From Yuukianura sp. NJ FZ-2021 (lineage: Eukaryota): a stretch of DNA of 64,000 nt. This document shows, in pieces, positions 29,257-64,000 of this stretch (the stretch's first letter is position 1; each line of letters opens with the position of its first letter). The stretch covers positions 496,001 to 560,000 of the forward strand of contig CM102283.1 of the NCBI GenBank assembly GCA_046563655.1. The letters are read 5' to 3'. A model generated the notes under the pieces. The model was not told the origin of the DNA. It ran no database searches and worked only from the letters and a program-made list of their open reading frames with translations. The translations under genes and the position numbers were made by a program.

Positions 29257-31562
29257 GGTCGAAGTAAACTTGGGCCCCCGCCTATCCCCACCCGTTCAAA
29301 TTTTCGCGCTGACTGCATTGTCCCCACCCACTGCCCCACCTGGTGGGGACAAATGTGTCCCCACCAGCCTTATAATGAGTCCCTCTAGCGGCTGAAGTGG
29401 ACCTAGCGAATTCGAGCTGGCAACGCTGTAGCATTGCTCCATTGTACCCACCCACGGCAGATGTAATTAACATAGCGACACTTAATAAGTCAAACCTACA
29501 GACGTAATCAGCATTTCGTGCTTTACCAAACCTAACGCCGCGCCTTCGGCGCGGGAAAATATAACAGTATTTACCAACTCAAAAAGGAACAAACGTTGCC
29601 ACCTTGAGTTCAGAGGTTACTGTATTGCCGCTAGGTGGACGTACTGCTTTTGCTTGTGGTGGGGACAAATGTATCCATCCGGTGGGGACAATGCAGGCAG
29701 CGCGAAAATTTGAACGGGTGGGGACAGGCGGGGGGCCCAAGTTTACTTCAACTGTTGAGGAATCAAGTGGAGATCCACCAATCTCCCTTCCTCCTTGTGT
29801 GACCTTCACTTTAGTTTTGAGTGCACTTGCACACTCGCATCCGGTCTTCCGACTCCACTTGTCACCTTGAGAGAGGACGAAGTGTCAACCTCACCGGAGG
29901 TGACGTGGCCATTCTCAAGGGCGATGAGTGGAGGCGGAATCGCCTCAACTCCTAGTTTAGTTTCAAGTTTAACACTAAGTTGCAATCCAGCACTCGCTGC
30001 GATACCTTGGGCCGAGCGGCAACTTCGTGAATTCATGGATATCGCAAGGAATGACGAAGTTCACCACTACTTGACAGACAAGTCGATTCGATGGCACTTT
30101 ATTCCACCAGGAGCACCTCATCAAGGCGGCCTTTGGGAAGCGAGACTGACGAGATGGCCACATGTCACCCTGATGTTCCAGTACTTCTGGAGACGTCGGA
30201 GTGCAGAGTACCTCACCTCGTTGCAAGAACGCTACAAATGGAAGAAGAAGACGACTAATGTGCAGGTTGGGGACTTGGTGCTGATCCGGGACGAGCAACT
30301 TCCTCCGCTGAAGTGGAAAATGGCGAGAATCACCGAAACCCACCCCGGCACTGATGGTCTAGTTCGAGTCGTCTCCCTCAAGACAGCCACTGGAAGCCTT
30401 CAAACGCCCTATCTCCAAAATTGATCCCCTACTACAACTCAACGACTAAGTTAGGGTAAAAGTATAACTTTTCTTGACCGCCACGGCAAGTCTTTAATTT
30501 TCTCAAACACTAGACCCTTAAGGCTAGCTACCCCCCAAGTTTCGCCAAAATCGGTCGTGCACAGTTGTCTGGATAATTCGTCAAACTTTTGTATAATTAG
30601 GTCACCTCTTTTAGATTAGGTATAGTATAGCATAGTTTTGAGCTAAGTTTCCTAGTATATGCTATAGTGTAAAAATTCGGTTTTTTCTTTCTCTCTAATT
30701 TTACTGACCCTACAAAAATTTGGCACCGCCACGGTACAGGGTTAATTTTCTTAGATACTAGACCCCTTAGGTTACCTTCCTGCAAAGTTTCACAAAAATC
30801 TATCGTGCACAAGATCCAGAGTAATTGGCTAAAGGTTGCAAAATTTAATTTCTTTATTATCTGGTATAGGCTTATCTATAGCTGTAGAACTATCCTTTTC
30901 ATTTGAGTTGGTGGATCTCCATGACTCTTGACGTCCGATTCCATAACGTTTTATCCCGGAATTGAGCTCATCGCTCAATTGGGGGCAGAATGTTGAGGAT
31001 TCAAGTGGAGATCCAGTGATCTCTCCTTCTCCTTGTGTGACCTTCACTTTAGTTTTGAGTGCACTTGCACACTCACATCCGGTCTTCCGACTCCACTTGT
31101 CACCTTGAGAGAGGACGAAGTGTCAACCTCACCGGAGGTGACGTGGCCATTCTCAAGGGCGATGAGTGGAGGCGGAATCGCCTCAACTCCATAGTTAGTT
31201 TTAGTTTAACTTCAAGTTGTCATCCAGCACTCGCTGCGATACCTTCCCTCTCTTCTCTTGCTCACTCGAGCCAATTGTGTTTCTCTCCAGTAGTGGTCAC
31301 TTGACCCTACTATTGTTCTAAAGTCTCTCTCCAGCACTCGCTGTAATAGTTTCTCTCTCCTTTTGCTCACTCGAGCCAAAGTAATTGTTTATACTAATAG
31401 TGGTCACTTGACCCTATTATTGTTCTAAGTGTCCCCCACTCGGGTCAAGTGTAAGTTTGCCTTGTATTGTGCCGTCCTCCTTGGAAAGTGTGCTACAATA
31501 AAGGAAATCTCTAATCATCTAGTTTTTGCACAACTTCATTCCATCCACCCATTTCATCAACC
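29257..31562. mobile_element. Non-autonomous DNA transposon with ~75-bp TIRs (Merlin-like), interrupted by a BEL/Pao insertion
   Basis: Left TIR GGTCGAAGTAAACTTGGGCCCCC...; the right copy is at 29681-29752 plus 31557-31562. 8-bp TSD GTTTTTTG at 29249-56 and 31563-70; GG termini. Confidence 0.75.
29753..31556 (+). mobile_element. Internally deleted BEL/Pao LTR retrotransposon
   Basis: Truncated 5' LTR from TGT at 29753; 3' LTR 30991-31556 after PPT GGGGGCAGAA; 5-bp TSD TCAAC. Integrase WHFIPPGAPHQGGLWE and DUF5641-like FWRR..EYL..LQ.R.KW...GDLVLI...P.KW...GTDGLVRVV. Confidence 0.9.
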
Positions 31563-40704: not shown

Positions 40705-43700
40705 ATGAGTAGATCTACCAGTCCTAGGGATAGGGGAACAAATAACCTACACGCTTTTCCTTTGATGCCTCCATTAATTCCTGCACCACCACCATTGCCC
40801 GCAGTAGCTCCTCCAGTCAGCACCATCCTTAATGCTCCTACAATAATGCCTACTGCTTCGGCGGCAACTTCCCCAACCAAACTCAATGTAGTGGCGCAAT
40901 CAACTCCACCGTTGCCGCAGCGAGTTTCGGTACCATTTCCACGATTTGGGGGAACAAAATCTGAATGTGTTCATAGGTTTTTGGTAAAATTGGAGTTAGC
41001 CGCGATGGCTAATAGACTTCCACCAGCAACTTGGGGACTTTTCTTACCTTCATCTTTAGAAAAAGTGGCAGAAGACTGGCTAGTAAATTTTTTGGAACAA
41101 CAACGGGTTACGGCCCCACAGAATACGGCGGTCATCAGCTAATTACGATCTTCGAAACGAGTTGCTTAAGGTTTTCGGCACGGTTGACTCCATTGCGGCG
41201 GAAGATCGTGCTCAGAACAGAAAACAACAAGTCGATGAAAGCATCGAAGCGTACACTTACGATTTACTAAATATCCTGCAACAACTTGATCCCTCTTTAA
41301 CGGAGCCTCGCAAACTAAAATATCTGATTAGAAATCTTCGCCCTTCGTATCTTCAGCAGATGGCGTTGTTAAATCGTAAAACAATAGCCGAGTTTATCAG
41401 TATCGGGAAGACTATCCAAGAAGCTAACTCCATGTTGAACCATCAAAGGGACGTTTTTGCACTTGAACAAGCTCGTGATAGGGTTTCTCTTGAGCCCACT
41501 GTGGGGATACCTTCTACGATTAATGCGGTTAAAACGGCTTATCCTCATCTTTATCCTAACACTGACAAATTTTTAGAAGATACGACATTGGTTCGTAACT
41601 CGAATCTCTATCGCGATGCTACGATGTTTACCCCAAATCCAGGGACAGGGCCTTCTCAAGGTCACCATCGAGGACCAGTAGTGTGTAAACGATGTAATCA
41701 AAGTGGTCATCTGGCACCCAATTGTCCTCAAATCGTTTGTTATCGTTGTGGGCAGAAGGCTCATATCGCTTCGAGATGCCAAGCGGAAGTGTTTTGCTCC
41801 AATCATAATACCAACACACATGCCACAGTAGTTTGTAGGATGCGGAATCAGCAACAACCTTCTGTGCTGAGTCCAGAGAAATATTGTAACTACCACAATA
41901 GCCGCTCGCATAATACGACGGATTGTCGGGCTTTAAAAAACCAGCAGAACGGGACGACACAAGGGGATCGTCCTGTTCAGACGAAAAACCCCTTGATCAA
42001 CTCTCTCAATACGAGATACCAATCCAATTTGAGCAACAACTAATTTTTCACATCGGTATTGCTGAATTGTTGCGAGTCGCTGGCACAGTTAATCACCATC
42101 CTGCAATTATTTTGTTAGATACAGGAGCTCAGGCCTCCCTCATAGACTCTTCTTTAATACCTTCGGATCAACTTCAAACTTTGCCTCACAGTCTCACTCT
42201 TTCAGGCATAGGAGCTACAAAGATTGAACCAGTTGGTAGAACACAAGTCATTATTAATTTACCTAATTTTAGTGTGAACCATGAGGTTCTCGTTGTTCAG
42301 AATTGTCCACTCAAAGTCCTTCTAGGTATGGATTTCTTACAAAAGCATAACGTCAAAATTGACCTTCGTACACAACATGTAACCATGGGGCATACAACGT
42401 TCCCCATCTTTCGTCCTTCCCGTTCGGAGGACATGATTTTCACAACTCTCACAGATGACACGCAGCAAAGACTCTATGTTATTGATACTTCACATTTAAA
42501 ATTAAGCTCCTCGGCCGGGGAAACGGACGAAATTGCTGGTTCTATGCAGGAATTGAACCAGCATATTCAGCCATTACAGGAAAATAGTCTAGAAACCGTA
42601 TTCTTACCAGAGTCAACAGAGAATATGTCTTTCGCGAAGCAACTCTCTTATATGGATTTTGATAGGATGCCTCTGACGAGAGGTGCACTTTCTTACCAGT
42701 CTCTTACCAGCGATTCAAGTATCGGCCATCCTCTTACAAGGGCCACAGTATTACCTTCGTAGTCTTTATTGTGTGGAACCACGAAACATGTTCAGTTTAA
42801 CGATGATCTAGAGGATGAGAATCATAAGCGGCTTTCCTTAGAGGATTTTGATGCTCATTTACAAAATTTGTATTCCCGAATCAATCCTGAGTTGGAGGAA
42901 CCTCAACAACTCCAACTTCGGAAGTTATTTAAATCTTACAATGATGTGTTTTCTTTCAAAGATGAAATTGGTCTTATCAAAGATTATGTGCACCATATTG
43001 TTTTGAAAAAAGATGCTAAACCATTTCGACACCAACCGGCACGGCGAAGCAAAGAGGCCATGGATGCCGAAAATAATACGATTAAAGAACTACTCAGGCT
43101 TGATAAAATTGAGCCTAGTAACTCCAACTTTCTTTTTCGGACGGTTATGGTTTCCCAGGGTATAACTCAGGCGTTATGATCCAAAACCGGTTATTCCCTC
43201 CAGGCAAAGTTATGATCAAAGGCCACCTACATACCAGTTGATCCCAACGGCTCCCTTGGCAGTTCCTCCTGAACTTTACACTCAAGGCGAAGGTTTCATC
43301 TGGAAAGGGATACCGCGTCCAGCATAGTGAATCCAGTCTTTTCTTCAGTACAATACGAGTCTATTTTACCCTTTGTTTCATCATGCACTCTACTGTCTTC
43401 ATTGGCTTCTTAGGCCTCATATGCTCGGCCCAATCAACTATTGTCCGAACGCTATCCGACATCTCAACAGTTACTAACCTTTCGACAGCACTATCGCATG
43501 ATGTATCAGAAAATCGTCAACTATGGGACAATCGGCGCGAGTTTAATGAGTCCCATTCCAAAACTCACCGTTGGATTATTGGAGTTTTAAGTTCTTACCG
43601 ACAGCCACAGGCTCTTCCTCTGCATCACGCCACATTAGCTTCCGTCGAATTTACTGTTCATGCGAGCCAAGGAAATCCACGAATAGCGTATGTGTGTACT

Positions 43701-49999: not shown

Positions 50000-50945
50000 A
50001 GTGGCGGGTGTCCTGGACAATGACCTCACACGTTCCCCCTATCGAAGCTGGCCTGAACATGACCACAAGACTCGTGACAACAAGTTTCCTTTATCCCCTT
50101 GACCACAATAGTTGAGGGTCAGTTGTGGCAGTCAACATTGGGTAACAAACTGTGTCTCATTACGAAAAAAGTATTTTTGAGGACTGTGGCGGCAACTGTC
50201 CTGGAAAAAGACCTCACATGATCCCCGGAGTGACTTTGGCCAGCACATGACCACAAGACTCGTGACAATAAATTTTTTCATCCCTTGACCCACTACAGGT
50301 CAGGGTCACCACTGGTGTCACATTGTGTGGGAGTCCGTTAATGTGGAGGAAAATAAAAACGAAATTCTGAGAAAGGAGTGACAGTTGAGGAGACTGTCCT
50401 CGACGGTGACGTCACACGATCCCCCGAGTGTCTCTGATCAAAACATGACAAAGAGACCCGGGAAGTTTCTTTCATCCCCTTGACCACAACAGGTCAGGGG
50501 ATGTCACGTCTAATGTCTAACCCAATGTCACGCCACTCACTGGCGTGACATTGGGTGGGAGTCTGTTAAAGAAGAAGAAAATAAAACACAGAGTTTTGAG
50601 AGGGAAATGGCCGTAGCGGAGACTGTCATGGACATTGACCTCACACGATCCCCCGAGTGACACTGGCCACAACGTGCCCAAATGACTCGTCAGAACAGGT
50701 TTCTTTCATACCTTGGCTCACAACAGGTCGGGTTCGCAACTGGCGTCACGTTGGGTGGGGGTCTGTCTGGGTAGAGGAGAATAGGAAAGGAACTTTGAGC
50801 ATGGCTGACTAGAGGAGACTGTCCTAGGCGGTCACCTCACACGATCCCCCGAGTGACACTAGCCTCAAAGTGACAGGGTGACTCGTCACTACAACTTTCT
50901 TCCATCCCCAGGCCCACAATAGGTCAGGGTCACAAGTGGCAGTCC
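50000..50945. repeat. Diverged tandem array, 5 units of ~190-230 bp
   Basis: The core TGTCCT...GACCTCACACGATCCCCCGAGTG...ACTCGT...CCCTTGACCACAAC.GGTCAGGG recurs at 50009, 50197, 50395, 50624 and 50820. Confidence 0.85.
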
Positions 50946-51876
50946 ACTGGTGCCCATTATATTTTAGGGGTGAAATCTTATTGGGGCTGTAAAAAAGTGT
51001 AAATGTAGAGGGGTAGCAATGCAGAATTAAATTGAGAACAATGGTTAACTAGTTGTTAATTATCGAATAGGTAGAGACGCACTGTAGTCTAATTTAGGTC
51101 ACCACTTCCTCATTTTAATTTTTTTAGGACACGCACGAGGCGTGATCGCACATTAGAGGAGTTTAAAGGCTTGAGGCTACGAAACCACATCCTCCACAAG
51201 GGGGACAAGGAAAAAGTTTTGGGTGTGCAAATCAAAAAGTGGGCCATGGTAAAAAAATTTTTAATGAGAAATGAAAAATTTTAATAAGAAAAACTGCGTG
51301 TAGGTAACCACATCCTTTTCCAAGAAGGAGGGAAAATGCAACTCTAGTGAGTGGTCTGTGGTGTGTGCGAAAGAAAATGGGTTTGCGAGGGGGAGATCTT
51401 TTCAACTCCTTTATTAACATGCGAAATTAGAATGCGGAAGTTAGGCACGCACTTTTGGGTGGGGTCGAAGTGGGTCAACTGTAAACCTATAACGTTCACG
51501 CGCACACATCAAATCGGGGCCATTTTCAATTCGGAAACGGGTCTTACTTTAATCCATTTTGCTTCAATCTGTTGAAACTTTCTGTTCTAAAGTATTCCTA
51601 ATTTGTTCAAAACTCTCTCTTCTAAACTCAGAATTTGTGGACTCTTTTGTCAAGTAACTATCAAGTTGAAAACATTTTTGCGCTACTTGGGGTACCACTC
51701 AAAGTAATTTGGGAACAAGTAGAAGGGACGTTTGTTATCAGGAATTCGCAACTTCGAGGTACGGTGAGGATTATGGAATTCTAATCCCTGTGTTTTTTTA
51801 CGTGATTCGTGGTAAGATTGCCATCCACAAGGACCTGTCAAGGTAAGAATCCAAAATCAGTCTTTAGTCCTCTAGC

Positions 51877-54800
51877 ATGGGTAAGGTACGCATCCTATTA
51901 CCCCGTTTTTCGGGTGGCAAGGACGAAGATGTAGCATCATTTTTGACAAAATTTGAGTTAGCATTTTTAGCTAGTGGATCGGATCGAGAGAAAATGGCCA
52001 CCACTTTATGTTGTCACCTAGATGGTACAGCTGAACCATGGATTTGTTACTACATAGCACCTAGAGCAGTTACGTAGTGACCTACGTCCGGGTGGCCAAG
52101 TACGCATTAAATCATTAGATTAAGGACAAACTGCTAGAGATTTTTGGGGTAGTTGATTCTGTGTCAGCTGAACTCAAATACAAAGAGAGGAAGCATAAGA
52201 TTGGGGAGACAGTGGAAAGTTACACCTCTGATTTACTAAAACCGATTGACCAAGCTGATCCCACTATGGACGAGCCCAAGCGGGTTAAACATTTGATCAA
52301 AAACGCTAGGCCAACTTTTTCAAGTCAAATCTCGTTAATAAATCCGCAAACAGTGCAAGAATTATTAACACTTGCGAAAAACATTGAGGCAAACAATATT
52401 ATCTCACATCAGAGGGACATTGACATTCTCGAAGGGGTTTTGGAGGCTAAAGTGGCTAACATGAGAAAAATCTCATCCCTTGAACAAAAAATGGAAAAAT
52501 TGAAAATTATGGTAGCAATGCCACAGAAAAATGATCGAGTCAATTCACCAAATGTACATGACCATGGAAAGCAGAATAATCTAGAACGCTCCGATCTATA
52601 TAACCAACCAGGTATGTCCCGCAGAGCACAAGGGGATAATTACACTCCAAGGAATGTACAACCTAGTGGTAGGCTAGGGCTGAAATGCAATTCATGTGGG
52701 CAGGAGGGTCACTTCGCTCATTAGTGCGCACAAATCAAATGTTATAAATGTTATGGGTTTGGGCACATAGCAGCGAATTGCAAAAATCGAAAAAACCAGT
52801 ACTGCCCGCATCATAAAACCAATAGCCATGATGGGTCCAGTTGCAGGGCAATGGCCAATAGACAATCTGCTGGAGAGGTTTGGTGCTCTTACCATCAGTC
52901 TCGCACTCATTCTGAACAAGAATGCAGAGCAAAAAACTCTCTGCGGGGGAGGAGGAACGGAGCTGCTCCACCAACAGAAGTCAGACAGACTCAGTAATAC
53001 CACCTCGGGTAGAAGTTAATCCATTACAAACAAACATATATATTAATTTAATTCCCATCCTGGCCATCGGAACAGGGAACTTACTTTTGGTTAAAGCTTT
53101 CATTAACGACAACCCAATGATGGTATTAATGGATATGGGAGCCGCGGCAAGAGTCATTTCTCAGGAATTGCTAGCAGATGATCAGGTGGAGAGAGGAGCC
53201 AACAAAATTACATTATAAAGTTTGGGAGAACAAAAAGTGGAATCAGTGGGCAGTTATCTCGTGTCCATTCAATTTGTACCTCAAGCTTACTATCATCAAA
53301 TAGTTGTTGCCCCAAACTTTAAATTGAAAGTGTTGTTGGGGGGTGATTTCTTGGATAAAACGGGAGCAAAAATTGACTTTCAAAACAGAACAGTTACATT
53401 TAATTATACAAAGATTTCAATGCTAGAAAATATTGGGGAATCAGAAAATGTCAATGAGATACGAGAGAGGATACACATTTTGCAACAGGGAGTTCGTTTA
53501 CACAAAGGTCATCATTCCGAGTCCAGCATCATACAGCATTCAAGCAGCGCAGGGGATGATACGGCCGTTGGGGAAGAGAAAGTGAATTTGATGTCACTTG
53601 CTAATTTAATCTCGGGCCCAGTGACTTTCGATAGTGATGGGAAGTCGAATCTACTTTCTCCATCGGGAGAAAACACAAGAATACGAGAGAGAAAGTGAGA
53701 AGTATAAACATATTGCGGAAAAGCTCAGAAGACAACTTCTTACCAGAGAGCATGATCATAGACACATTTCCGACCCAGTTTGTAAAAATGAAGTTTATGA
53801 GAAGATCGATATTGTAGGCCAGGAAGTCACAGCAGGCATGGAGATTGATCCAAATTTCCATATCAACCAACTACCATTACATTTTCTACAGGATCATATT
53901 TCCAACATTCATTCTCAAATAAGTCCAGAACTCACTCCCGAACAACAAATAGATTTAAAAGTACTTCTAACCGAGTTTGCGGATGTGTTTGCTTATGGAA
54001 AACAAGTACGGGTAATAAAAACTACACCCATCACATTCTATTAAATCCAGGAGCACAACCTATTTAGGCACAACCCAGTTAAGCGAAATGCGCAAGCTCA
54101 GGAATTCGAACGAAAGGCCATTCAGCAACTTCTAAAAACACATAAAATACGACCATCAAACTCTAGTTATGCGTCAAGGACCGTAATGGTCCCCAACGCC
54201 ATGACTGGAGACGATGGATCGAAAATATGGAGGTTATGCATAGACTATACGTCGTTGAACAAGCAAGTTCAAGATGTAGAATTTTACATGACGGGCATAC
54301 AAACTATCATCAATTGGTTATCCGAAAGATCATTTCGGTACATCTCATTAGGTGACGTCACAAAAGGGTATTACGATATTCCATTAGACGAGTCATCTAA
54401 ATATTTAACAGCATTTATCACCATGGATGGTTTTTGGGAATGGGAGGTGCTCCCTTTTGGCATAAAAACGGCGCCATTTTCATTTTGTCGGGCTGTTTAT
54501 AACATGTTACGAGCATGCGTCTATGAAAGTGTATGTACATACATCGATGATTTGATCTGGACAGACAAACAGTGGCATGATCACTTGCATTATTTAAGAG
54601 CCGTATAGTATTAAAGACTCCATCATGATTTCTCTTTCACTGTGGAGTGGCATTTAACCCGCCGAATCAATGTCTGGATTTCACTGCGTCAAAATTATCA
54701 CTTTAGCTTACAACCGACCGGAAAACAAATTCGAACCTGTTAGGCTGAAAAACGTCTACACGGATCCAATAAACGCTTCAAGTTGTTCACAAATGTATTC

Positions 54801-55599
54801 CCAACATGTGCATCCTGACGGATAAAAAATGTATAAAATCAATTCAACAACTTATGGTACAAGGAATCATTTAGTCATCAACGACACGTCACACAAGATT
54901 TCTTTGGGCATAACCTACACGGGTTATGTGCGTTCACCAGAAGTTCCCAACATGCAAGAAAATTGTGAATTTGATGGCCACGAATGCCCTAGCTCCGATG
55001 GAATTGTAGTTTGGCAGATCTTCGCCCACAACAGAAATAACTCTACGTTAAGGAAACGCACTGCTTCGAATTGTTTTAATAATCCAGAACATATAATTTG
55101 CAAAGACCTAGCTTTAAGCATAACGGACTATTATGACAAGTCAAAGGACAGTTGTGGAGTTCGACTTGGCATTACTCGAAGTATAATTGAAGCTACCGAC
55201 ACTTTAGAGCAAGAGGACACCATGGACACATCTACGCAATTCAAAATTGAATCCAGATTCTCGGACTTATACGAAACAATCAAGCTTGGGCAACTAACTT
55301 TTCTCAAAGTACTGCATATAGGGTCGTGTGACTTTTCAAAGGGTCCTCCAAACAGTGACGTCCCGATTCAACAAGACCAGAGACCACAGAAAATAATATC
55401 TGTTCCATCACCATCCATATCTTCTACGACGCATCAGGAAAAGGAGCAGTCGGATTCTCATAAAGTTGACAAGATAGACGTTACTCTTACAAAGCTCTTA
55501 CGTAACTCCCATGACGAAGACTTTGGCAATGACAATAGGTCTTTTGTCTCTCCTACGATGACAAACCCTTTAGCCGAAAGAACAGCAAATTCCTGTTGA
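51877..55599 (+). mobile_element. Decayed gypsy-like retroelement 2, same family as element 1
   Basis: Gag LPRFSGG, four Zn knuckles, protease LMDMGA..LLGGDF, RT WRLCIDY..LPFG..YIDD, and an env fragment (LRKRTASNCF..C.DLA.SITDYY...RSIIE..LKVLHIGSCD) that aligns to 45230-45520. Confidence 0.88.
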
Positions 55600-56522
55600 C
55601 ATCAAAAATATTATGGAAGAATTTGGAGTGGACGAAAATAGCGGAATCAACAACTACAGTTTCACCTTCTCCTTATTTTATGTACAAGATTCCTTATTCC
55701 ACTTTCCTCTTACTCCTCACTCCTGAAGAAATTAAAAACAATCTCACAAATATTCTGCTTCATAACACCATTTAACACAAATTTAATATAAACTAACCCA
55801 CACAGTATGTTAATATTAACTATGCACAATTAAGATCACTCAGTTTATAATAACATTAGGACATTGTAACGTCGGATTTTGAACATCCCGGATTTCGTGA
55901 ATTTCGGGATGAGTCAAAATCAGACTATAGTTAATTAAGCATAATTTAAAGAGTACAAGACTAGTATGCAAATTGATAAGGTTGCTTTTTGAGACAAAGT
56001 TGCAAAGATTAATGTTAATTGATCTTTGCAATGACAGGTCAGAAGAAGGCTGACGCGACAGTTTTACTTGTCCAACAAGTTTAAAACTTGTTGGACATGT
56101 GAAGTCATGCCACCCGCGAGTGATTTTCATACAAACTAACATCGTTGTCAATTTGCATACGATCACAACTTTGTCCGATATCAGACATTACTGACAGAAC
56201 TGGATCATAAATCCTGGTCATTAACGTCTGATCACGGACTAGAGTCCAAAAGGTGTTGCCAAGGGTTATGAGGTCAAGGGCCTCATAGGAGAGTTAGTTT
56301 AAGTGTTTAGATTAATTAAAACTAAATTAGTTAGTTAGGGCGAATGCCCATAAGTGTTTGTCCCCTGTCTCCCTCTCCTTTTGGAGTCGGCAGAGCCGAC
56401 AGAAGAACCCAGCAGCACTTCTCCTGCAGCAGCCACGCCGTCAACAGCTCTGCCTTGCTCCGTCCAGCCACAAGTCTGCTTCCCCGGTCAACTGGAGGTC
56501 AACCAGGTCAGATCAGCGTGTG

Positions 56523-56610
56523 GCCAGTGATTGGCCTAGCCAGTGATTGGCTTGTGGTGGCCAGTGATTGGCCGTAGCCAGTGATTGGCTTGTTGTGGCC
56601 AGTGATTGGC
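56523..56610 (-). promoter_or_regulatory. Five tandem GCCAGTGATTGGC units (reverse CCAATCA / NF-Y-like boxes)
   Basis: Copies at 56523, 56539, 56560, 56577 and 56598. Confidence 0.6.
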
Positions 56611-57215
56611 CTCCCTTCCCCCGGATCCGCATTTCGGTTGGTTATGGCCCTTAAGGCCCGTTAGTTTAGCCACAAGGGCTCCTTTGTATTTAGTTAGGGT
56701 TTGTTTGTTTCGTTCGCTACGATTTAAAATAAATCGTAGCCACAAAGATCATCGGTTTTGGGTTTGTTTTTGTTTATTTCATTGTGAGGCTGGAGCAGTG
56801 CAGAGAGGCACTGCTCAAGCCTCATATCTGGTGCCCCGAGCATTAACTGCCCCTTCAGTCATTGTTTTCATGGGTATCGATGATTAATCAGTGATTAATC
56901 ATCGATTCATCGTTAAATTCGTAGAAAAATCGGTTGAGGTGCCGCTCTGGGGGTGGTAAAGGCATGGTCCCCACCTTTTAGTACATGAACCGTATGAAAC
57001 GGTACGGTTTTGCGCATATGTTTTAAAGTCACATTTTTGATTTCAATTTTTCTTTTGAGCGCGGTCCGCACCCAACTTCAAATTTTGAATTTCATTTTCA
57101 TTTCTTACCAAAGTCAATTTCTTAGTAAATGTACATGCATTTAACTTAAATTTACCGATTCCTAATCAAAGTTTGCGTTCCTAAAACTGAGTTTTTGTTC
57201 TAATTCTGTAGATAC

Positions 57216-58448
57216 ATGGTCCTCACTCGTAGTAAAAGCAAGGAATTAACGAATTCTCAAACGGAAGTACCCGCTCCGCCCGCGCTCAGACCGCTCACAC
57301 CCGTGCGTGCAAGCAGCGCACCCCCATTTGTTTTAACGGTTTCTCCCGCTACTCCTAAATCGGAAACAGAATCGGAGGAAGAGTTTTTAGATTCTTTTGC
57401 AAACATGGCAACTAACGACGCGAAAGACGCGGAGATTGCCAGTTTACGTGCGCAGTTACTCACAATGCAGACAGCCATGGATGACATGCGTGCACAGTTG
57501 CAAATTGTCGCCGCGCCCGCTCCGGCCGCGCCCGCTCCGGTCACCGCACCCGCTCCTAACGTACAGCCGCCTTCCGCTCCACAAGTGCTATACGTAGAAC
57601 AGGCACCTGTGATTCCTATTCCTAAATATACGCCAAGAATTCCTATTACTTCCTTTTTCAAAGAAGCAGAAGATTATTTTGTTCTTAAAAATTTAAATGA
57701 AGAGTCAAAACTTGTTCTAATTAGCCGAATGTTTCCGAGAGATTCGGACATTTTGCGTTGGTGGCTCGACATTCAAGCCAATATTGCGACATGGGATGAA
57801 TTCAAGGTCGCTTTTCTAAATTATGAGGGGATTGGTCAATCCAAAGATAAACTTTTGTCGGATCTTTTCGCTAAAAAGCAATTCTTTTCGGAGGCTTTCG
57901 AAACTTTTGCATGGGACGTTGCCAATTCTTATAAACGAATAGTCCCAGACGCTTCGAGTGAAACGATTAGAGAACGAATTGTAAACGCTTGTCTTCCTGA
58001 AATTTCTATTTTGCTCAGATCTTCTCCAGCTACTAACATTGCTGAACTCATTGCTCATGGGAAGAGAATTGTATGCGATTTGAATCGAACTCGACGTTTT
58101 GAAAACAAACCTTTGATTCGTTCTCAAGCTTCTGACGATTTTTCGGAATTCAATCAAAGACTTAAAGACAGAGCAGGCGCACGGCAACCGGCTAAAGCTC
58201 CTTACGTTCCAAATTCCTATTCACAGCCTCGTCCTGCTGGGCCTAGTTCAGTCCCACCTGCAAATCCCGGGACAAGTCGGCCTCCTTATACGAATGGGCC
58301 TAGACCTAGCAGTTCGGGTCAACCACCTCCGGCAAAAGAGTGGTCGATTGATCAAGTCCAGTGTTTCCGATGTGAACGTTATGGGCACTATGCAACGACT
58401 TGTAAATTTCCCGCCAAGAAAAATTCTGGGGGTGCCCCAAAAGGTTAA
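57216..58448 (+). CDS. Retrotransposon Gag (410 aa, open)
   Basis: MVLTRS N-terminus, capsid-like core (WW...TWDEFKVAF...KQ..E.F..F) and a single CCHC knuckle. Confidence 0.9.
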   Translation: MVLTRSKSKELTNSQTEVPAPPALRPLTPVRASSAPPFVLTVSPATPKSETESEEEFLDSFANMATNDAKDAEIASLRAQLLTMQTAMDDMRAQLQIVAAPAPAAPAPVTAPAPNVQPPSAPQVLYVEQAPVIPIPKYTPRIPITSFFKEAEDYFVLKNLNEESKLVLISRMFPRDSDILRWWLDIQANIATWDEFKVAFLNYEGIGQSKDKLLSDLFAKKQFFSEAFETFAWDVANSYKRIVPDASSETIRERIVNACLPEISILLRSSPATNIAELIAHGKRIVCDLNRTRRFENKPLIRSQASDDFSEFNQRLKDRAGARQPAKAPYVPNSYSQPRPAGPSSVPPANPGTSRPPYTNGPRPSSSGQPPPAKEWSIDQVQCFRCERYGHYATTCKFPAKKNSGGAPKG

Positions 58449-59029
58449 GGAGGAGTGACTCAGAGGAGAAGGTCGCTCTTCCGTCTTCATTTAATTCTCC
58501 CAATTCGGATCCAGTTTTTTCTGCCATGATTCCTAAACAAACTAAAATTCAGTACGTTACCGGTGACGCTACTCAACCACATTTAAATTCCAAGCGCGGT
58601 ATTTTGGCTCATATTTGCAATGATCAAGGTTTTTGGGGAAAAGGTTTTGTTCTTTCTCTTTCCAAAGCATTTAAAGCTCCAGAGTTAGAGTACAAGAAAC
58701 TCCAAGCTCCAATTCAAAAAGGTTTTGTTCAATTCATTCCAGTTTCTCAAAATCTTGAAGTTGCAAATATGGTGGCCCAGGGACATCCCAAGGAACCAGT
58801 CCCCATTGATTATGACGCTCTCCATGTAGCGCTTCGGACAGTTTGTAAACGCGCTCTTGAGACTGGAGCCGCGGTTCACATGCCAGAAATTGGTGTTGGT
58901 TTGTCTCGTGGAAGGTGGAACATCATCGCTCACATTATTTTTCTGGAGCTATGTATGAACGGCGTAGAAGTTACCGTCTATTCCCTTCCACAGAGAGTTC
59001 CAAATCCGCCAAACCTACAAGGAAGGTAG
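58406..59029 (+). CDS. Macrodomain (SCO6735/ALC1-TARG1-like ADP-ribosylhydrolase) in the -1 frame relative to gag
   Basis: IQYVTGDAT.P, ILAHICNDQGFWGKGFV.SLS, VANMVAQ, IDYDAL, VHMPEIGVGLSRGRW, GVEVTVY. The frame is open from 58406 (first ATG 58526) with no stops. Confidence 0.9.
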   Translation: MSRQEKFWGCPKRLRRSDSEEKVALPSSFNSPNSDPVFSAMIPKQTKIQYVTGDATQPHLNSKRGILAHICNDQGFWGKGFVLSLSKAFKAPELEYKKLQAPIQKGFVQFIPVSQNLEVANMVAQGHPKEPVPIDYDALHVALRTVCKRALETGAAVHMPEIGVGLSRGRWNIIAHIIFLELCMNGVEVTVYSLPQRVPNPPNLQGR

Positions 59030-59349
59030 GACGGGAGTTCCCTAGCCTTCCTAAATCGGATTTTTCAAAAGCAGCTCCCACAATTAAATTAAAAATCAGA
59101 CATTCAATTCATTCTGCCCATTTAGATTCATTGTCTACTTATTCGATTATTTCTGCTTCTTTGGCTAAACAACTCGGTTTGGTTATTAAGCCAGGGCAAA
59201 TTCAATTAACGATCGGTGACTCCAGTACAATCAGTACTTCCGGAACTTGTGAGCTACATTTCAAAATTTATACGGACGAATACATTCAAACAGTCCATGT
59301 GCTCCAGTCTCCGCCGTTCCCTATTATTCTCGGACTTGACTTTATTCGG
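59008..59349 (+). CDS. Retropepsin-like aspartic protease (start of pol), truncated by insertion
   Basis: PTIKLKI...AHLDSLSTYSIISASLAKQLGL...IGDSS...G...ILGLDFI in the -1 frame relative to the macrodomain; the active site is DSL rather than DS/TG. Confidence 0.75.
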
Positions 59350-59564
59350 TGTGGTGTATTTGGCAATTTAAATAAACGATTATTTAATTAACTCAAAAAA
59401 CTTAATACTAAATTAAGTGTGTGCTGAGCGGCACTCAAACATTGAGTGCCAAAACTATGTGATTTTGAGAGAGTGGTGGTGACTTAAAAGTAACCGCCAC
59501 TCTGGACACAAAACTTAACTTACGGGGAAGTTGAGACTGCGCTGAAAAGCGCAAATACATTACA
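59350..59564 (-). repeat. 3' LTR (215 bp) of element 4
   Basis: Minus-strand PPT GAGGGGAAGGAA then TGTAATGTATTTG...CAAATACACCACA (imperfect terminal inverted repeat). Confidence 0.85.
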
Positions 59565-59844
59565 TTCCTTCCCCTCTAAGAAAGATCGCTTTCCAAAACG
59601 TTTTGGAGAAGGAAAGAGAAGGAAAGGGACCCCAGCATCTTGGTACTTGGTGGGAGCCACTGCTTTTGAGATGGAGGTGGACGAGGCCTCCAGCAGCACC
59701 AAGGTTTTGCAAAAACCATCCGCTGAGGGGGTAAGGTAGGTTAAGGTACCGGAAGGAGAGTGACCTTTCTCTGAGAGGAGGTTACAATCAGAGAACTGGG
59801 ACCTTAACTTATACTTACAGTTATGTACACTAAACCGTTACAGT

Positions 59845-62800
59845 TCAGTTTTTCTTGCCTTTAGCGGCACGCGGAAGAACTGGACGACGTTGAGTCGGCG
59901 CAGGGACTGGAGTTGCTTCCGGGGAGGTTATCGGACTTTGGTTAGGGGACGGCGTAGTGTAGTCGTCCTCGTCCGGGGATTCGTATTCCGATGACGGTTC
60001 GGAATCAGCATTTGAGTACTCCGTAGGTAGGTGCGGAGTTAGAATCGGAGCAAACGAGTGAGGAGACGGGACTTTGGCTGGCGTTTTCGGAGTCAGACTA
60101 GACTTTGGAGTGGACTTAGAAGTTGGTGACGTCACTGGCTTTGCAGTTTCGGAGTTTAACGCCACTTCCTCCTCCTCCAAGTTTTGAAACGAAAACGGAG
60201 AGGTCCGTGCGTCGAGTAATTGGTCCTGGTGACGACGGTACCTACTAGTCTCAAACTGGACAACAACAGTTACGGGACCTTTGAATTCGACAATTTCACC
60301 TAATGACCATTTTGGATAATCTTTTTTGAATGATTTAAACCAAACCCGTTGACCAATGTGAAATTCCCTGTGTCTCGCTCCTTTGTCGAAATTTGACTTC
60401 TGCCGTTCCTGCTGAGACGAGACAGTCTGTTTGACGTCAGGACGGAGAAGATCGAACAGTGAACGTAGACGACGACCTTGGAGTAACTCGCATGGTGCGA
60501 CTCCAGTGGTGATATGAGGAGTAATCCTGTATTGGAACAAGAAATTTTGCACAAAATAATCCAAATCACCCTTACTTTCAATTGACTTTTTGAAGGTGTT
60601 GACGAAGTTCTCCGCTTCGCCATTGGACCGAGGATGGTAAACGGAACTTGTCGTGTGTTTCACGCCGTTCGACTTCAGGAATTGTACAAATTCGGTTGAA
60701 GTGAACTGGCGTCCGTTGTCTGTGACCACCTGTCTAGGAATACCGAAACGGACAAAACACTCACGGAATTTGGTAATTAGAGCCTGAGATGTGGAATTAG
60801 AGTTCAAACAAAATACCTCTGGCCACTTACTATGTGCGTCTACGATTAGTAGCCACATTTTACCTTTGAATGGACCGGCCAGATCTGCGTGGAGACGGTG
60901 CCACGGCTTTTGGGGAAACTCCCAAGGATGAAGTTCCGCTGGTGGTGGATCCTTTGCTGACTCACGGCAGTGTGTACAACGTTTTGTGACTTGTTCAATG
61001 TCAGAATCCAGTTTCGGCCACCAGAAAAATTCTCGGGCAAGAGATTTCATCTTCACGATTCCAGTATGAGCAGAATGAAGTTCCTGGAGAAGATTCTCTC
61101 GTAGTTTTTCTGGGATGAGTACCCGAATACCCCATAGGACAACGTTACTGGCAATTGTCAATTCTTCCTTCCGTAGGAAGTATGGGTACAGTAGGTCGGT
61201 CTTGTCCACTTTCTCTGGCCAGCCGTCACGAATGTACCTAAAAACCTGCGATAAAATTTTATCCTTTTTAGCGTACCTCTGGATCTCTGTGGAAGTGATG
61301 GTGACGGATTCGGTGGCAACTTTCACTGCGTTGACGAGACCTTCGTCGTCGTCGTCAAAAGTCACGTCATGGCCAGAAGTTGGGAAGCGTGAAAGGGCGT
61401 CTGCATTCCCATGTTCCGTCGTCTTCCTGTAGTGGACATCGTAGGAGAATTGTTGAAGGAACAGACTCCAGCGATGAACACGAATCGCAGCGAAGGACGG
61501 AAGCGCCTTGTTTTTGCCAAAAATGTGGACGAGAGGCTTGTGGTCGGTTACTAGGGTGAAATGTCTACCTAGAAGATACTTGTAAAACTTTTTGCATCCA
61601 AATACAATTGACAAAGCCTCTTTTTCGATTTGAGAATATTTTTGCTCAGTTTTGGTAAGAATTTTAGACGCGTACGCAATTGGTTTTTCCTTACCATCTG
61701 CCATTCTGTGGAATAGGACAACCCCTAGACCAATACCTGAAGCGTCGCAGGAGATCCCAAGGGGCAAATCCTGGTTGTACAAGGTGAGGACTTCAGTAGA
61801 TGACAGTTTCCGTTTGATTTGGTTGAAAATCTTTGTGTGTTGACTTGTCCACTTCCAGTCTACGTCATCGTGTGTCAATTTGTAAAGTGGAGCTGAAAAT
61901 TCTGCGAAATTGTCAACAAAACCACGGTAAAAGTTTACCAGACCCAGAAATGAACTCATTTCCTTTTTGTTGGTCGGCTGGGGCATCTCGAGAATCGACT
62001 CCACGAGTTTTGGAGAAGCGCTAATTCCCTCCGAGGTCAACCTAAATCCAACAAAATCAACATTTTCCCGCATGAACTCACATTTTTCCCTCTTCAGAAA
62101 AAAGTTGCGGTCCCTCATCCGCGACAGAATGAGGCGTAGGGTGTTGAGGTGGGTTGTCTCATCATGCCCCGTGCAGATGACGTCATCCATGTAAGCACCA
62201 GCTTTTGGAATTCCAGTCAAGAGTCCATCCATGAACTCTTGGAAAATCGATGGTGACGATGAAATGCCCTGAGGAAGTACGTTGTACTGGTATAACCCCT
62301 TGTGAGTGTTGACTACCAAGTACTTTCTGCAACTTTCGTCTACTGGGATTTGGTGGAAGGCGTCAGGGCCATCTAATTTTGTGAATTTCTGTCCACCAGA
62401 AAGCAAGTTAAACAAATCCTCAGTACGAGCAATGGGATACTGGTTAATGTTCAGTTGGCAATTAACAGTGTTTTTGAAGTCCCCTGTAATTCTGACTTTA
62501 CCGTTGGGCTTTAAAACGCAAACGAGAGGTGATGCCCAGTCAGAATGCTCGACTATTGTCAGTACTCCTTGACTCACCATTAGATCCAATTGTTCGTCGA
62601 CCTTTGACCTGAGTGCGAACGGAATTGGACGAGCCTTGAGGAATCTGGGTTGTGCGTCTTCCTTCAGGACAATTTTTGCACGAAAATCCGTGACTGACCC
62701 AGTTGGATTTTCAAAAACCTGAGAAAATTCAGTTAGCACACTTTCCAGGGTTAAATTTTTCATCATGTTACAATGAGACAAATTTTTTCCAATTTCAACC

Positions 62801-63990
62801 CAATTTAGTTTTACCTTTCCCATTAAGTCACGACCAAGTAGGGAAGAACCAGTTGTCACTGGAAATTGGTGTGACACTTTTTGACCATGGTACGTGACTG
62901 TCGTTGGTAACTCACCCTTTGGTCGAAACGTCACGTCAGGATATCCTTTGAAGACGAGGCTGGACTTTTTCAAAGTCGGAGATCCGAGACTGGCCCAAAA
63001 ATCCTCCGAGAGCAGACTGTGCTCACAACCTGTGTCTAATTCAAAGGAATGTGGAACACCATTGACAATTAGACTTACGCACAGTTCCTTACGTTTCCCA
63101 TAATGAACATGGTTGACAGACGAGATGTTTGAAACTTTCCCGTGTCCAGAATTGTCACGTTGGGCAGGGACTGACTTGCCCTTTGACCTGCAGTATTTTG
63201 CGTAGTGGCCCTTTTTCCCACACGAGTGACATTCTACGTCCTTCTTGTCACAGTCCTTGGCAGTCGAGTGACGATTGGATCCACAGTTCGGACAATTCTT
63301 CTTCTGATTTTGACTTTCCTGTGGAACATGATTAGGTTTCGGTTTAAACTTTTTACCGTTTCCTTTCCCTTTACGTTGAAATACTGCGTTGACTGTTTCC
63401 TCTTTTTGCTCTGTTTTCCCGTCTCGGATCAGCTGTTGTGATTTAATCGCAAGTTCGTGCGATTGAGCGAGAGAGAGTACGTCAGCCAGGGAAATATCAT
63501 CTTCCTTCGTGAACAGTTGTTTTTGTGCAGCAGCATTTCCTAAACCTAGAATGAACTGGTCACGGAGGCGAGTATCGAGACAACAAGTGAATTTGCATGT
63601 AGTTGCCAATTTTCGCAATTCGGCCAAAAATTCAGCAACCGACTCACCATGTTGCTGTACCCTTTTTCCAAACTTAAAACGTTCGGAAATTACCTTAGGA
63701 GACGGTTTGAAGTGCTTAGAGAGTGTATCGATTAGCACTTGCAGTGTTTTGGATGTAGGATCCTCCGGCGAAAGGAGATCCTTTAGGAGCGTGTACGTAC
63801 GCATCCCTAGAGACGAGCAGAAGACGGCCTTACATCTCGTGTCCTGTTCCTTTTCGTCGATACCGTTAGACAGGAGGAAAAATTTGAATAAGTCCGTCCA
63901 GTCGTCAAAGTCATCTTTGTCATGATCAAAGGACGGAACGGAGCCGATGACGTTAACGAACTGAGTCGTTTTAGAAGAGCCAGAAGCCAT
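59845..63990 (-). mobile_element. Ty3/gypsy (Mag-like, K02A2.6-type) LTR retrotransposon, intact single gag-pol ORF (1381 aa)
   Basis: Gag with two CCHC knuckles, protease LDTG, RT LPQG/YMDD, RNase H CDAS..EKE..TDH, integrase HHCC plus D-D-E (HADL, TDNG, NGEAE). The 5' LTR lies beyond the window. Confidence 0.96.
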
Positions 63991-64000
63991 GTTTAGCTGT

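Follow-up and report, generated by a model that had tools for sequence, protein, structure and literature searches.

INTRODUCTION

Accessory enzymes and domains of retroelements, such as dUTPase and chromodomains, point to host processes with which these elements must cope. In betaretroviruses and deltaretroviruses, gag, pro, and pol are linked by two successive -1 frameshifts, and the middle open reading frame (ORF) of mouse mammary tumor virus (MMTV) and Mason-Pfizer monkey virus (MPMV) includes a dUTPase. Among RNA viruses, the macrodomains of coronaviruses (Mac1), alphaviruses (nsP3), and hepatitis E virus counter host antiviral poly(ADP-ribose) polymerases (PARPs). Viral macrodomains acting against host PARPs are also treated in PMC10499221. 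A review (PMC4977317), citing Basta et al. 2009, J Virol 83:10152, states that some epsilon-like endogenous retroviruses (ERVs) of ray-finned fish include CNPase or macro domain ORFs. According to PMC9411070, the macrodomain proteins DarG, TARG1, and SCO6735 all remove thymidine-linked ADP-ribose from single-stranded DNA (ssDNA); SCO6735 clears the thymidine ADP-ribosylation of ssDNA made by DarT thoroughly and protein ADP-ribosylation partly. Here, we analyze 64,000 nucleotides of Yuukianura sp. NJ FZ-2021 (GenBank assembly GCA_046563655.1, contig CM102283.1, positions 496,001 to 560,000 of the forward strand), the whole of which is called the window below. It carries a truncated long terminal repeat (LTR) retrotransposon in which a macrodomain of the SCO6735 kind occupies a reading frame between gag and protease, apparently expressed as a Gag fusion by -1 frameshifting.

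RESULTS

An SCO6735-type macrodomain between gag and protease

The coding part of the macrodomain-bearing element is laid out as follows.

57216..58448, plus strand: gag ORF, ATG to TAA (stop-to-stop frame 57204-58448), with a CCHC zinc knuckle near the C terminus
58436..58442, plus strand: slippery heptamer 1 of the gag frame, C CCA AAA, lying one codon ahead of the stop
58443..59029, plus strand: macrodomain (macro) ORF as read after a -1 shift, with a linker of ~34 residues, the macrodomain at ~58544-58990, and a TAG stop at 59027-59029
58449..58500, plus strand: predicted stimulatory structure 1, an 11-bp stem of 58449-58459 with 58472-58482, 6 nt past the heptamer
59008..59014, plus strand: slippery site 2, G CCA AAC, in the macro frame; A-site part A AAC classical, P-site part non-canonical
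59015..59349, plus strand: N-terminal part of pro-pol (linker and retropepsin), the gene being cut off at 59349
59021..59078, plus strand: predicted stimulatory structure 2, with the stem GGAAGG+TAGG (59021-59030) paired to 59041-59044 and 59046-59051

Along the series gag, macro, and retropepsin, every ORF is in the -1 frame relative to the one before it; the frames are those found in the window, with no consensus built and no frame mended. The macro frame is open from 58406 to 59029, with its first ATG at 58526 and 167 codons from that ATG, and the retropepsin frame runs stop to stop from 58861 to 59391. A first-pass annotation, made from the sequence letters without database searches, had described a 167-aa ORF with a set of macrodomain motifs between the gag and retropepsin of an LTR retroelement. 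That description holds: the translation of the middle ORF contains GDAT, HICNDQGFWGKGFV, VANMVAQ, MPEIGVGLSRGRW, and VTVY, and the retroelement context is borne out by gag with its CCHC knuckle, the retropepsin, a probable LTR, and the pol domain order of a relative (see below).

The middle ORF is an ALC1/TARG1-class macrodomain of the SCO6735/BT1257 subgroup. A phmmer search against PDB sequences matched BT1257 of Bacteroides thetaiotaomicron (2afc, E value of 1.1e-30; 2fg1, 1.8e-30) and SCO6735 (5e3b, 7e-29) over query residues 45 to 195, with 39 to 47% identity over the whole domain, compared with E values of ~2e-9 for the CHD1L/ALC1 macrodomain and ~8e-3 for TARG1/OARD1. The AlphaFold2 model of 58526-59026, built on a 74-row alignment, has a predicted local distance difference test (pLDDT) score of 95.7 and a predicted template modeling (pTM) score of 0.88. 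When this model was compared with the PDB by Foldseek, ranks 1 to 10 were taken by BT1257 (2fg1, 2afc), SCO6735 (5e3b), ALC1, TARG1, and DarG, with query TM-scores (TMq) of 0.71 to 0.84; superposition on BT1257/SCO6735 gave TM-scores of 0.77 to 0.84. RNA-virus macrodomains (nsP3 of Chikungunya virus and of Venezuelan equine encephalitis virus, VEEV) rank below ALC1, TARG1, and DarG in Foldseek, at 15 to 18% identity, and no viral macrodomain occurs among the PDB sequence matches up to an E value of 1. Both searches thus put BT1257/SCO6735 first, in line with the SCO6735-like class proposed in the first pass. In Pfam, the macro ORF has no match at an E value of 0.1, so that a routine domain scan would miss it.

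Two other assignments were rejected. A retrocopy of ALC1/OARD1 is ruled out by the E values of ~1e-30 to BT1257/SCO6735 versus 2e-9 to ALC1 and 8e-3 to TARG1, and a MacroD-type viral macrodomain is ruled out by the sequence and fold rankings.

Residues His24, Asn27, Lys34, Gln85, Lys89, and Gly128 of SCO6735 are all identical in the window protein (6/6 in the phmmer alignment). As reported in PMC9411070, these six residues were mutagenised; Gln85, the counterpart of the catalytic lysine of TARG1 (Lys84) and DarG (Lys80), proved indispensable, and the other five contribute. The glutamine equivalent to Gln85 is invariant in 74 of 74 alignment rows, and the histidine, asparagine, and glycine are conserved in at least 90%; P0038, a relative outside the transposon clade defined below, has an arginine at the Lys34 equivalent. 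Given the six identical residues and the invariant glutamine, the macrodomain looks catalytically competent. Together with the phmmer ranking, the retained catalytic residues contradict the counter-case raised in the first pass, that of a catalytically dead ALC1/OARD1 retrocopy.

The macro ORF is a family trait

Relatives were gathered by an exhaustive HMMER search of protein representatives (3352 found) and by a metagenome scan (best 80 of 347 relatives). P0034, with 64% identity to the window macrodomain, is among the best protein relatives, as is P0036. In P0037 (568 aa), gag is fused in frame to the macrodomain; its gag part is 38% identical to that of the window (E value of 2e-76), its macrodomain is 51% identical, and zf-CCHC is called in it. 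The metagenomic elements L001, L002, and L005 have gag and macro on one contig, and the window gag is homologous to theirs (tblastn E values of 6e-49, 7e-18, and 7e-14, respectively); macro and protease occur together in the metagenomic elements L002 and L004. L004 also retains an intact frame of 1107 aa with the domains PR-RVT_1-RT_RNaseH-Integrase_H2C2-rve (PR from a weak Asp_protease match), which is the Ty3/Gypsy order. As read from these coding sequences, the element is a multi-copy Ty3/Gypsy-type LTR retrotransposon with the coding frames gag, macro, and pro-pol. Gag identity among the elements that share the three-frame layout is only 34 to 41%.

All six of the six macrodomains with a shown transposon context fall in a single clade of 10 rows, together with P0034, P0039, and two copies from the contig L003. 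The clade has a FastTree SH-like support of 86 in a tree of 130 rows and an IQ-TREE SH-like approximate likelihood ratio test (SH-aLRT) support of 98 in a tree of 69 rows, the latter drawn from the 130 rows as the clade, its neighbors, and a spread of the remainder; both trees are midpoint-rooted only. For the non-transposon rows, genomic context is not claimed in every case; NCBIfam, applied to the neighbors of three sister-group macro genes, gave one informative match, a B12-dependent ribonucleotide reductase with an intein beside L021. The first-pass annotation had envisaged a one-off insertion as the alternative to its proposal. Copies in all four sequencing runs described below, four metagenomic elements, P0037, and the single clade support the macro ORF as a family trait and not a one-off.

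Several sequences in and around the clade stand apart. L003 (1661 bp) has tandem macrodomain ORFs (229-804 and 866-1423) that are 87% identical (nonsynonymous divergence [dN] 0.07 and synonymous divergence [dS] 0.23). These ORFs lack matches to gag and protease as well as a start codon ahead of the domain, and they could represent a derivative that was domesticated or amplified in tandem. P0039 (229 aa) is a complete ORF in which a Lys/Arg/Ser-rich N terminus of ~75 residues precedes a transposon-clade macrodomain; it could be a host gene, either the source of the transposon domain or a descendant of it. Another fusion context for this macrodomain type is provided by P0011 (472 aa, metagenomic), in which an endonuclease/exonuclease/phosphatase domain (PF03372) at the N terminus is followed by a Gly-rich repeat and, at the cut-off C terminus, by the beginning of an SCO6735-like macrodomain. 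P0033 (3305 aa, with a 61-residue repeat) was discarded as spurious, its score being summed over 49 weak stretches against the linker. A word-based search for longer proteins returned bacterial M78-peptidase fusions and P0011, and no polyprotein, and a scan of viral contigs with the gag alignment gave 34 pattern matches, 0 of which were confirmed.

Two predicted -1 frameshift cassettes

The frame change from gag to macro is -1 in four of four junctions (window, L001, L002, and L005), and that from macro to protease is -1 in five of five (window, L001, L002, L004, and L005). Heptamer 1 is the sole canonical in-frame heptamer of the gag/macro overlap and lies at the same position in all four elements, reading C CCA AAA in two (window and L002) and G GGA AAA in the other two (L001 and L005). 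The XXX part alternates between CCC and GGG as a unit, a pattern that speaks for selection acting on slipperiness rather than on the residues encoded. In structure 1, the loop GGAGA (58465-58469) is complementary to TCTCC (58496-58500), 27 nt further on, suggesting a possible H-type pseudoknot. Of 64 cells in the gap-free alignment A3, 96.9% pair, versus 45 to 66% with slid partners; five stem-1 pairs show compensatory changes on both sides, whereas stem 2 does not vary in its letters. Stem 1 is present in the minimum free energy folds of all four sequences, with modest z-scores (-0.35 to -2.9).

At the second junction, the window's G CCA AAC aligns with G GGA AAT (L001, canonical), G GAA AAA (L002), and G GAA AAC (L004 and L005), so that the pattern N NNA AAH is present in five of five; no canonical heptamer occurs elsewhere in the macro/protease overlap of the window, L002, or L004. 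Structure 2 starts 6 nt past this site with a GGAAG...CTTCC stem, the loop GGAGT, and a downstream ACTCC; the loop (59034-59038) is complementary to GCTCC (59074-59078). In alignment A7, 94.7% of 75 cells are paired, versus 37 to 63% with slid partners, and three pairs are changed on both sides; single-sequence folds of structure 2 are no better than shuffles (z-scores of -0.58 to +0.55). By these comparisons, frameshift signals are shown to be conserved across the family, from which we infer that frameshifting actually occurs.

In two of the four relatives (L001 and L002), the stretch from the point where the macro frame opens to the domain contains no ATG, and without a conserved ATG there, independent translation of macro is unlikely. 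The in-frame fusion of P0037 shows that a related lineage makes a Gag-Macro protein. The macrodomain is apparently expressed as a Gag fusion by -1 frameshifting, and the Gag fusion proposed in the first pass is upheld by the conserved -1 signals and by P0037. Its "separate ORF" proved apt as regards the reading frame, which is macro's own, and not as regards independent translation, given the missing ATG in two of four relatives and the -1 signals at four of four junctions.

Five metagenomic gag relatives, P0187 to P0191 (32 to 47% identity), end in E/G/K-N just before the stop (QEN, QGN, SKN, and EEN). These C termini resemble the ends of the macro ORFs of L004 and L005 at the slippery site, a likeness of residues only, the codons being unreadable from protein. 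They fit a shared N NNA AAC signal, possibly in relatives whose gag leads straight into pol.

A retropepsin with a D-S/T-L motif

By Pfam, the window retropepsin is a weak match (best aspartyl-protease E value of 0.0022, below the curated cutoff); it is homologous to the protease of the intact L004 pol (tblastn E value of 2.4e-17). Its active-site motif is D-S-L at 59125-59133, as in L004 (~546-554), and L001 has D-T-L (~1380-1388); the near-universal retropepsin motif D-S/T-G is found in none of the three. Being shared across the family, D-S/T-L is a conserved variant and not the decay of one copy.

Copies in sequencing runs and selection on macro

Four public runs contain the stretch (two organism labels, two studies), and contigs were placed at a likeness of at least 80%. 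In each of the four, 78 to 353 contigs cover LTR, gag, macro, and protease at 80 to 99% likeness. Junction-spanning contigs, record 28 (58089-58457) for gag/macro and record 12 (58898-59105) for macro/protease, are gap-free, so the frames are the same in those copies. Past 59349, contigs from three runs carry sequence that differs from the window, which indicates that the window copy is cut off there, most simply by the neighboring element. The end coordinate given in the first pass, 59349, is this very point, at which the window copy stops matching other copies.

Across the same element pairs, dN is 0.30 to 0.48 for macro and 0.58 to 0.85 for gag, with dS saturated or undefined. Among genomic copies, 13 of the 18 gag differences are synonymous, as are 6 of the 10 in macro and 0 of the 2 in protease; these 30 differences were classed from the 40 best-supported of 631, a non-random sample, with those outside the three coding frames excluded. 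The lower dN of macro and its six synonymous differences out of 10 support the proposal that macro is under purifying selection, in agreement with what the first pass had looked for.

Probable LTR and surroundings of the element

56336..56826, plus strand: probable 5' LTR of the macrodomain-bearing element; 3' boundary fairly firm, 5' boundary uncertain
56829..56841, plus strand: candidate primer-binding site, starting TGG, 2 nt past the LTR end
59350..64000, minus strand: other Gypsy-like LTR element, its 3' end abutting the 59349 break, running off the window

Summed over the sequencing-run contigs, depth at 56250-56860 is several-fold above that of the internal region. Four contigs of run X4 follow the window as far as 56826, beyond which they carry unlike, mutually different sequence (agreement of 0.53), as expected at LTR ends; loose contig ends lie "before" 56336 in runs X2 and X3. 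Repeat and self-BLAST searches found no second LTR and no second copy of the element in the 64-kb window, as the macrodomain-bearing element is cut off and its 3' part is either lost or beyond the window, and the metagenomic contigs are all too short to show both LTRs of one element. The candidate primer-binding site was read from the sequence, and no tRNA genes were found in the window. Within the probable LTR, at 56500-56615, self-matches reveal direct repeats of ~18 bp containing CCAGTGATTGGC; repeat copy number differs among genomic copies (indels, with joints at 56408-56575).

The minus-strand neighbor encodes gag-PR-RT-RNaseH-integrase (protease, reverse transcriptase [RT], RNase H, and integrase) in one 1384-aa frame (59845-63999) with RVT_1, RT_RNaseH, Integrase_H2C2, and rve, and contig depth jumps from 59422 onward. 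Its adjoining position most simply explains the truncation of the macrodomain-bearing copy.

The window is a nest of retroelements. Degraded LTR-element pieces lie at 51868-55600 (plus strand), with a gag with CCHC knuckles, protease, and RT fragments at 52 to 55.6 kb; a CCHC gag with an RVP retroviral protease lies at 41087-42762 (plus strand, 41 to 43 kb), and a BEL/Pao-type DUF5641 piece lies at 29759-30424 (plus strand, 29.8 kb). Just upstream of the retroelement cluster, 50009-50940 is a tandem array of five copies of units of ~190 to 230 bp, 65 to 81% identical. At 12800-13519 (plus strand), an uninterrupted frame of 240 codons encodes an APC10/DOC domain (PF03256, E value of 2.4e-73), an intronless host gene or a retrocopy among the transposons. 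These contents mark the host as a eukaryote, probably an animal.

DISCUSSION

We propose that most ribosomes would stop at the gag stop codon, that a fraction would slip by -1 at X XXA AAA, aided by the downstream stem-loop or pseudoknot, to give Gag-Macro, and that a fraction of these would slip by -1 again at N NNA AAH, before the second pseudoknot, to give Gag-Macro-Pro-Pol. Gag, Gag-Macro, and Gag-Macro-Pro-Pol would then be made in decreasing amounts, and the macrodomain would be built into the particle, substoichiometrically, by way of the Gag part. There, it would strip mono-ADP-ribose, put on by host ADP-ribosyltransferases, from proteins of the element or from reverse-transcription intermediates. 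The latter are suggested by SCO6735, which markedly prefers thymidine-linked ADP-ribose on ssDNA.

The aligned sequences themselves establish the three-frame anatomy, the homology and class of the domain, its conserved active site, the conserved layout, and the frameshift cassettes; the enzymatic activity, substrate, and biological role of the macrodomain are inferred. On balance, we lean slightly toward the explanation that the element encodes a frameshift-expressed, Gag-fused ADP-ribosylhydrolase whose role is most likely counter-defence or repair, a role suggested by analogy with viral macrodomains and with DarG/SCO6735.

Several points weigh against this explanation. The second slippery site is non-canonical in four of five elements, with the A-site part A AAH only. 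Folded singly, the sequences of both structures mostly give energies that do not beat shuffled controls, and both structures rest on four to five sequences, with invariant second stems and no covariation there. Saturated dS leaves omega values only rough, so that dN was compared, and the classed differences are the best-supported rows. The D-S/T-L protease bears on polyprotein processing, including the release of Macro from Gag. In addition, the window copy is dead, its pol being cut off at 59349; no RNA runs are found among the public runs containing the stretch; and we know of no host ADP-ribosylation system acting on retroelements for this host.

A bolder form, which we put forward tentatively and would not expect to prevail, is that an old and widespread Ty3/Gypsy lineage uses a dedicated, frameshift-accessed ORF to package in its particles a bacterial/phage-type DNA/protein ADP-ribose hydrolase that shields single-stranded reverse-transcription intermediates; this would imply that nucleic-acid ADP-ribosylation serves some eukaryotes as a defence against retroelements.

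The origin of the domain is a question of its own. The first pass spoke of a captured bacterial-like domain, and the likeness is evident: in bacterial species-representative genomes, at least 594 matches were confirmed among at least 600 pattern matches, at 37 to 50% identity to the window protein, and the matches listed span Bacteroidota, Actinomycetota, Verrucomicrobiota, Planctomycetota, and others. The closest ESM Atlas clusters are bacterial, one of them (130 members, free-standing macrodomains) having tailed phages as its commonest phylum label. Capture is another matter, as no bacterial donor stands out and the best bacterial identity is 50% among the matches listed. The label "bacterial-type" seems justified, and "captured from a bacterium" would be a step beyond the data. 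The element may instead have acquired the domain from an SCO6735-type gene of its eukaryotic host, or else host genes may derive from the element, with no direct bacterial capture. We hold this to be a possible minority account: the absence of any bacterial sequence closer than 50% among the matches listed favors it, as does the presence of P0039 and two L003 copies, without shown transposon context, in the 10-row clade, whereas the abundance of the family in bacteria and the bacterial or phage makeup of the closest ESM Atlas clusters speak against it.

As regards function, the macrodomain could have a housekeeping role in replication, like retroviral dUTPase, clearing ADP-ribose-derived metabolites or ADP-ribose on RNA ends, the tRNA primer, or DNA ends. 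We regard this as rather unlikely. A frameshift-accessed ORF upstream of pol does parallel the betaretroviral dUTPase. Enzymes of the class also act on nucleic-acid ADP-ribosylation, as PMC9411070, PMC11833690, and PMC13036486 indicate. However, no direct evidence favors such a role, and the line between it and counter-defence hinges on the targeting of a host modification, which is not judgeable from sequence.

Doubtful, and more so, is the idea that the macrodomain serves as a reader that binds ADP-ribose or poly(ADP-ribose) (PAR) and guides the pre-integration complex or Gag particles toward PARylated sites, such as damaged chromatin or stress granules, which would parallel the ALC1 macrodomain or the chromovirus chromodomain. 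Accessory targeting domains are known in Gypsy elements, and the ALC1/CHD1L macrodomain, used for PAR binding, is among the nearest solved relatives. Yet the domain is far closer to the hydrolases BT1257/SCO6735 (~1e-30) than to ALC1 (2e-9), the SCO6735 catalytic residues, above all the Gln85 equivalent, are kept across the transposon clade and the bacterial relatives, and the domain is joined to Gag, not to integrase.

Finally, the idea that the macro ORF rides along without function, or stems from a rearrangement confined to the window copy (truncated and unable to transpose), is barely credible against a three-frame layout shared with elements of 34 to 41% gag identity, a macro better conserved than gag, retained catalytic residues, and many copies in four runs.

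A conserved ADP-ribosylhydrolase with an intact active site, made as a Gag fusion, would be sequence-level evidence that ADP-ribosylation bears on the replication of LTR retrotransposons. Its target may be cDNA, because the nearest characterised enzyme prefers ssDNA substrates, and if the cDNA-protection reading is true, some eukaryotes would have their own equivalent of the DarT/DarG conflict that sets bacteria against phages. SCO6735-like macrodomains carried by phages, where they would counter DarT, would offer a natural parallel. Beyond this, the element supplies a compact natural case of two -1 frameshift cassettes in tandem outside Retroviridae, along with a retropepsin family whose D-S/T-L active-site motif is unusual. 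Since Pfam-based transposon annotation misses the domain, such elements are probably under-reported.

Apart from the fish ERVs, our literature search turned up no account of a macrodomain in LTR retrotransposons, whether Gypsy-type or other, and no paper with both "SCO6735" and "retrotransposon," within a limited coverage of subscription journals, Repbase Reports, and supplements that does not establish absence in print. The macro-domain gene of PMC5982333 was set aside as unrelated, being a fungus-to-moss transfer.

Comparison with known systems

The closest free-standing proteins, SCO6735 and BT1257, share whole-domain homology with the window protein, in which the six tested SCO6735 residues are identical. 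They differ in being single proteins of ~150 to 170 aa, whereas the window domain lies inside a retrotransposon polyprotein behind a linker of ~34 residues, and the loops that follow the first helix pair and the catalytic glutamine are shorter in the transposon clade. DarG and TARG1 belong to the same structural class (Foldseek E value of ~1e-10) but have a catalytic lysine (Lys80 and Lys84, respectively) where SCO6735 and the window protein have glutamine; unlike in the case of DarG, no DarT-like partner adjoins the macrodomain here.

Positive-strand RNA viruses likewise carry a macrodomain inside the polyprotein of a selfish replicator. Theirs, however, are of the MacroD type, and the nsP3 matches reach only 15 to 18% identity.

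The epsilon-like ERVs of fish resemble the element in being retroelements with a macrodomain as an additional reading frame. They differ, as far as a single sentence of the review allows the comparison, in being vertebrate retroviruses said to have picked up cellular genes; here, the lineage is of the Ty3/Gypsy type, and its bacterial-type domain holds a constant position between gag and pro, apparently reached by frameshifting.

Betaretroviruses offer a parallel in layout, with three overlapping frames, two -1 sites each with a stem-loop or pseudoknot, and a middle-frame accessory enzyme made as a Gag fusion. In contrast to them, the middle ORF here holds the macrodomain only and the protease is in the third frame with RT; the accessory enzyme would be an ADP-ribosylhydrolase, not a dUTPase, and the second slippery site is mostly non-canonical. 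The element is therefore of a known kind, an LTR retroelement with a frameshift-reached accessory enzyme; what appears new is the class of that enzyme, its fixed gag-pro slot, the tandem frameshift cassettes, and the family-wide D-S/T-L motif.

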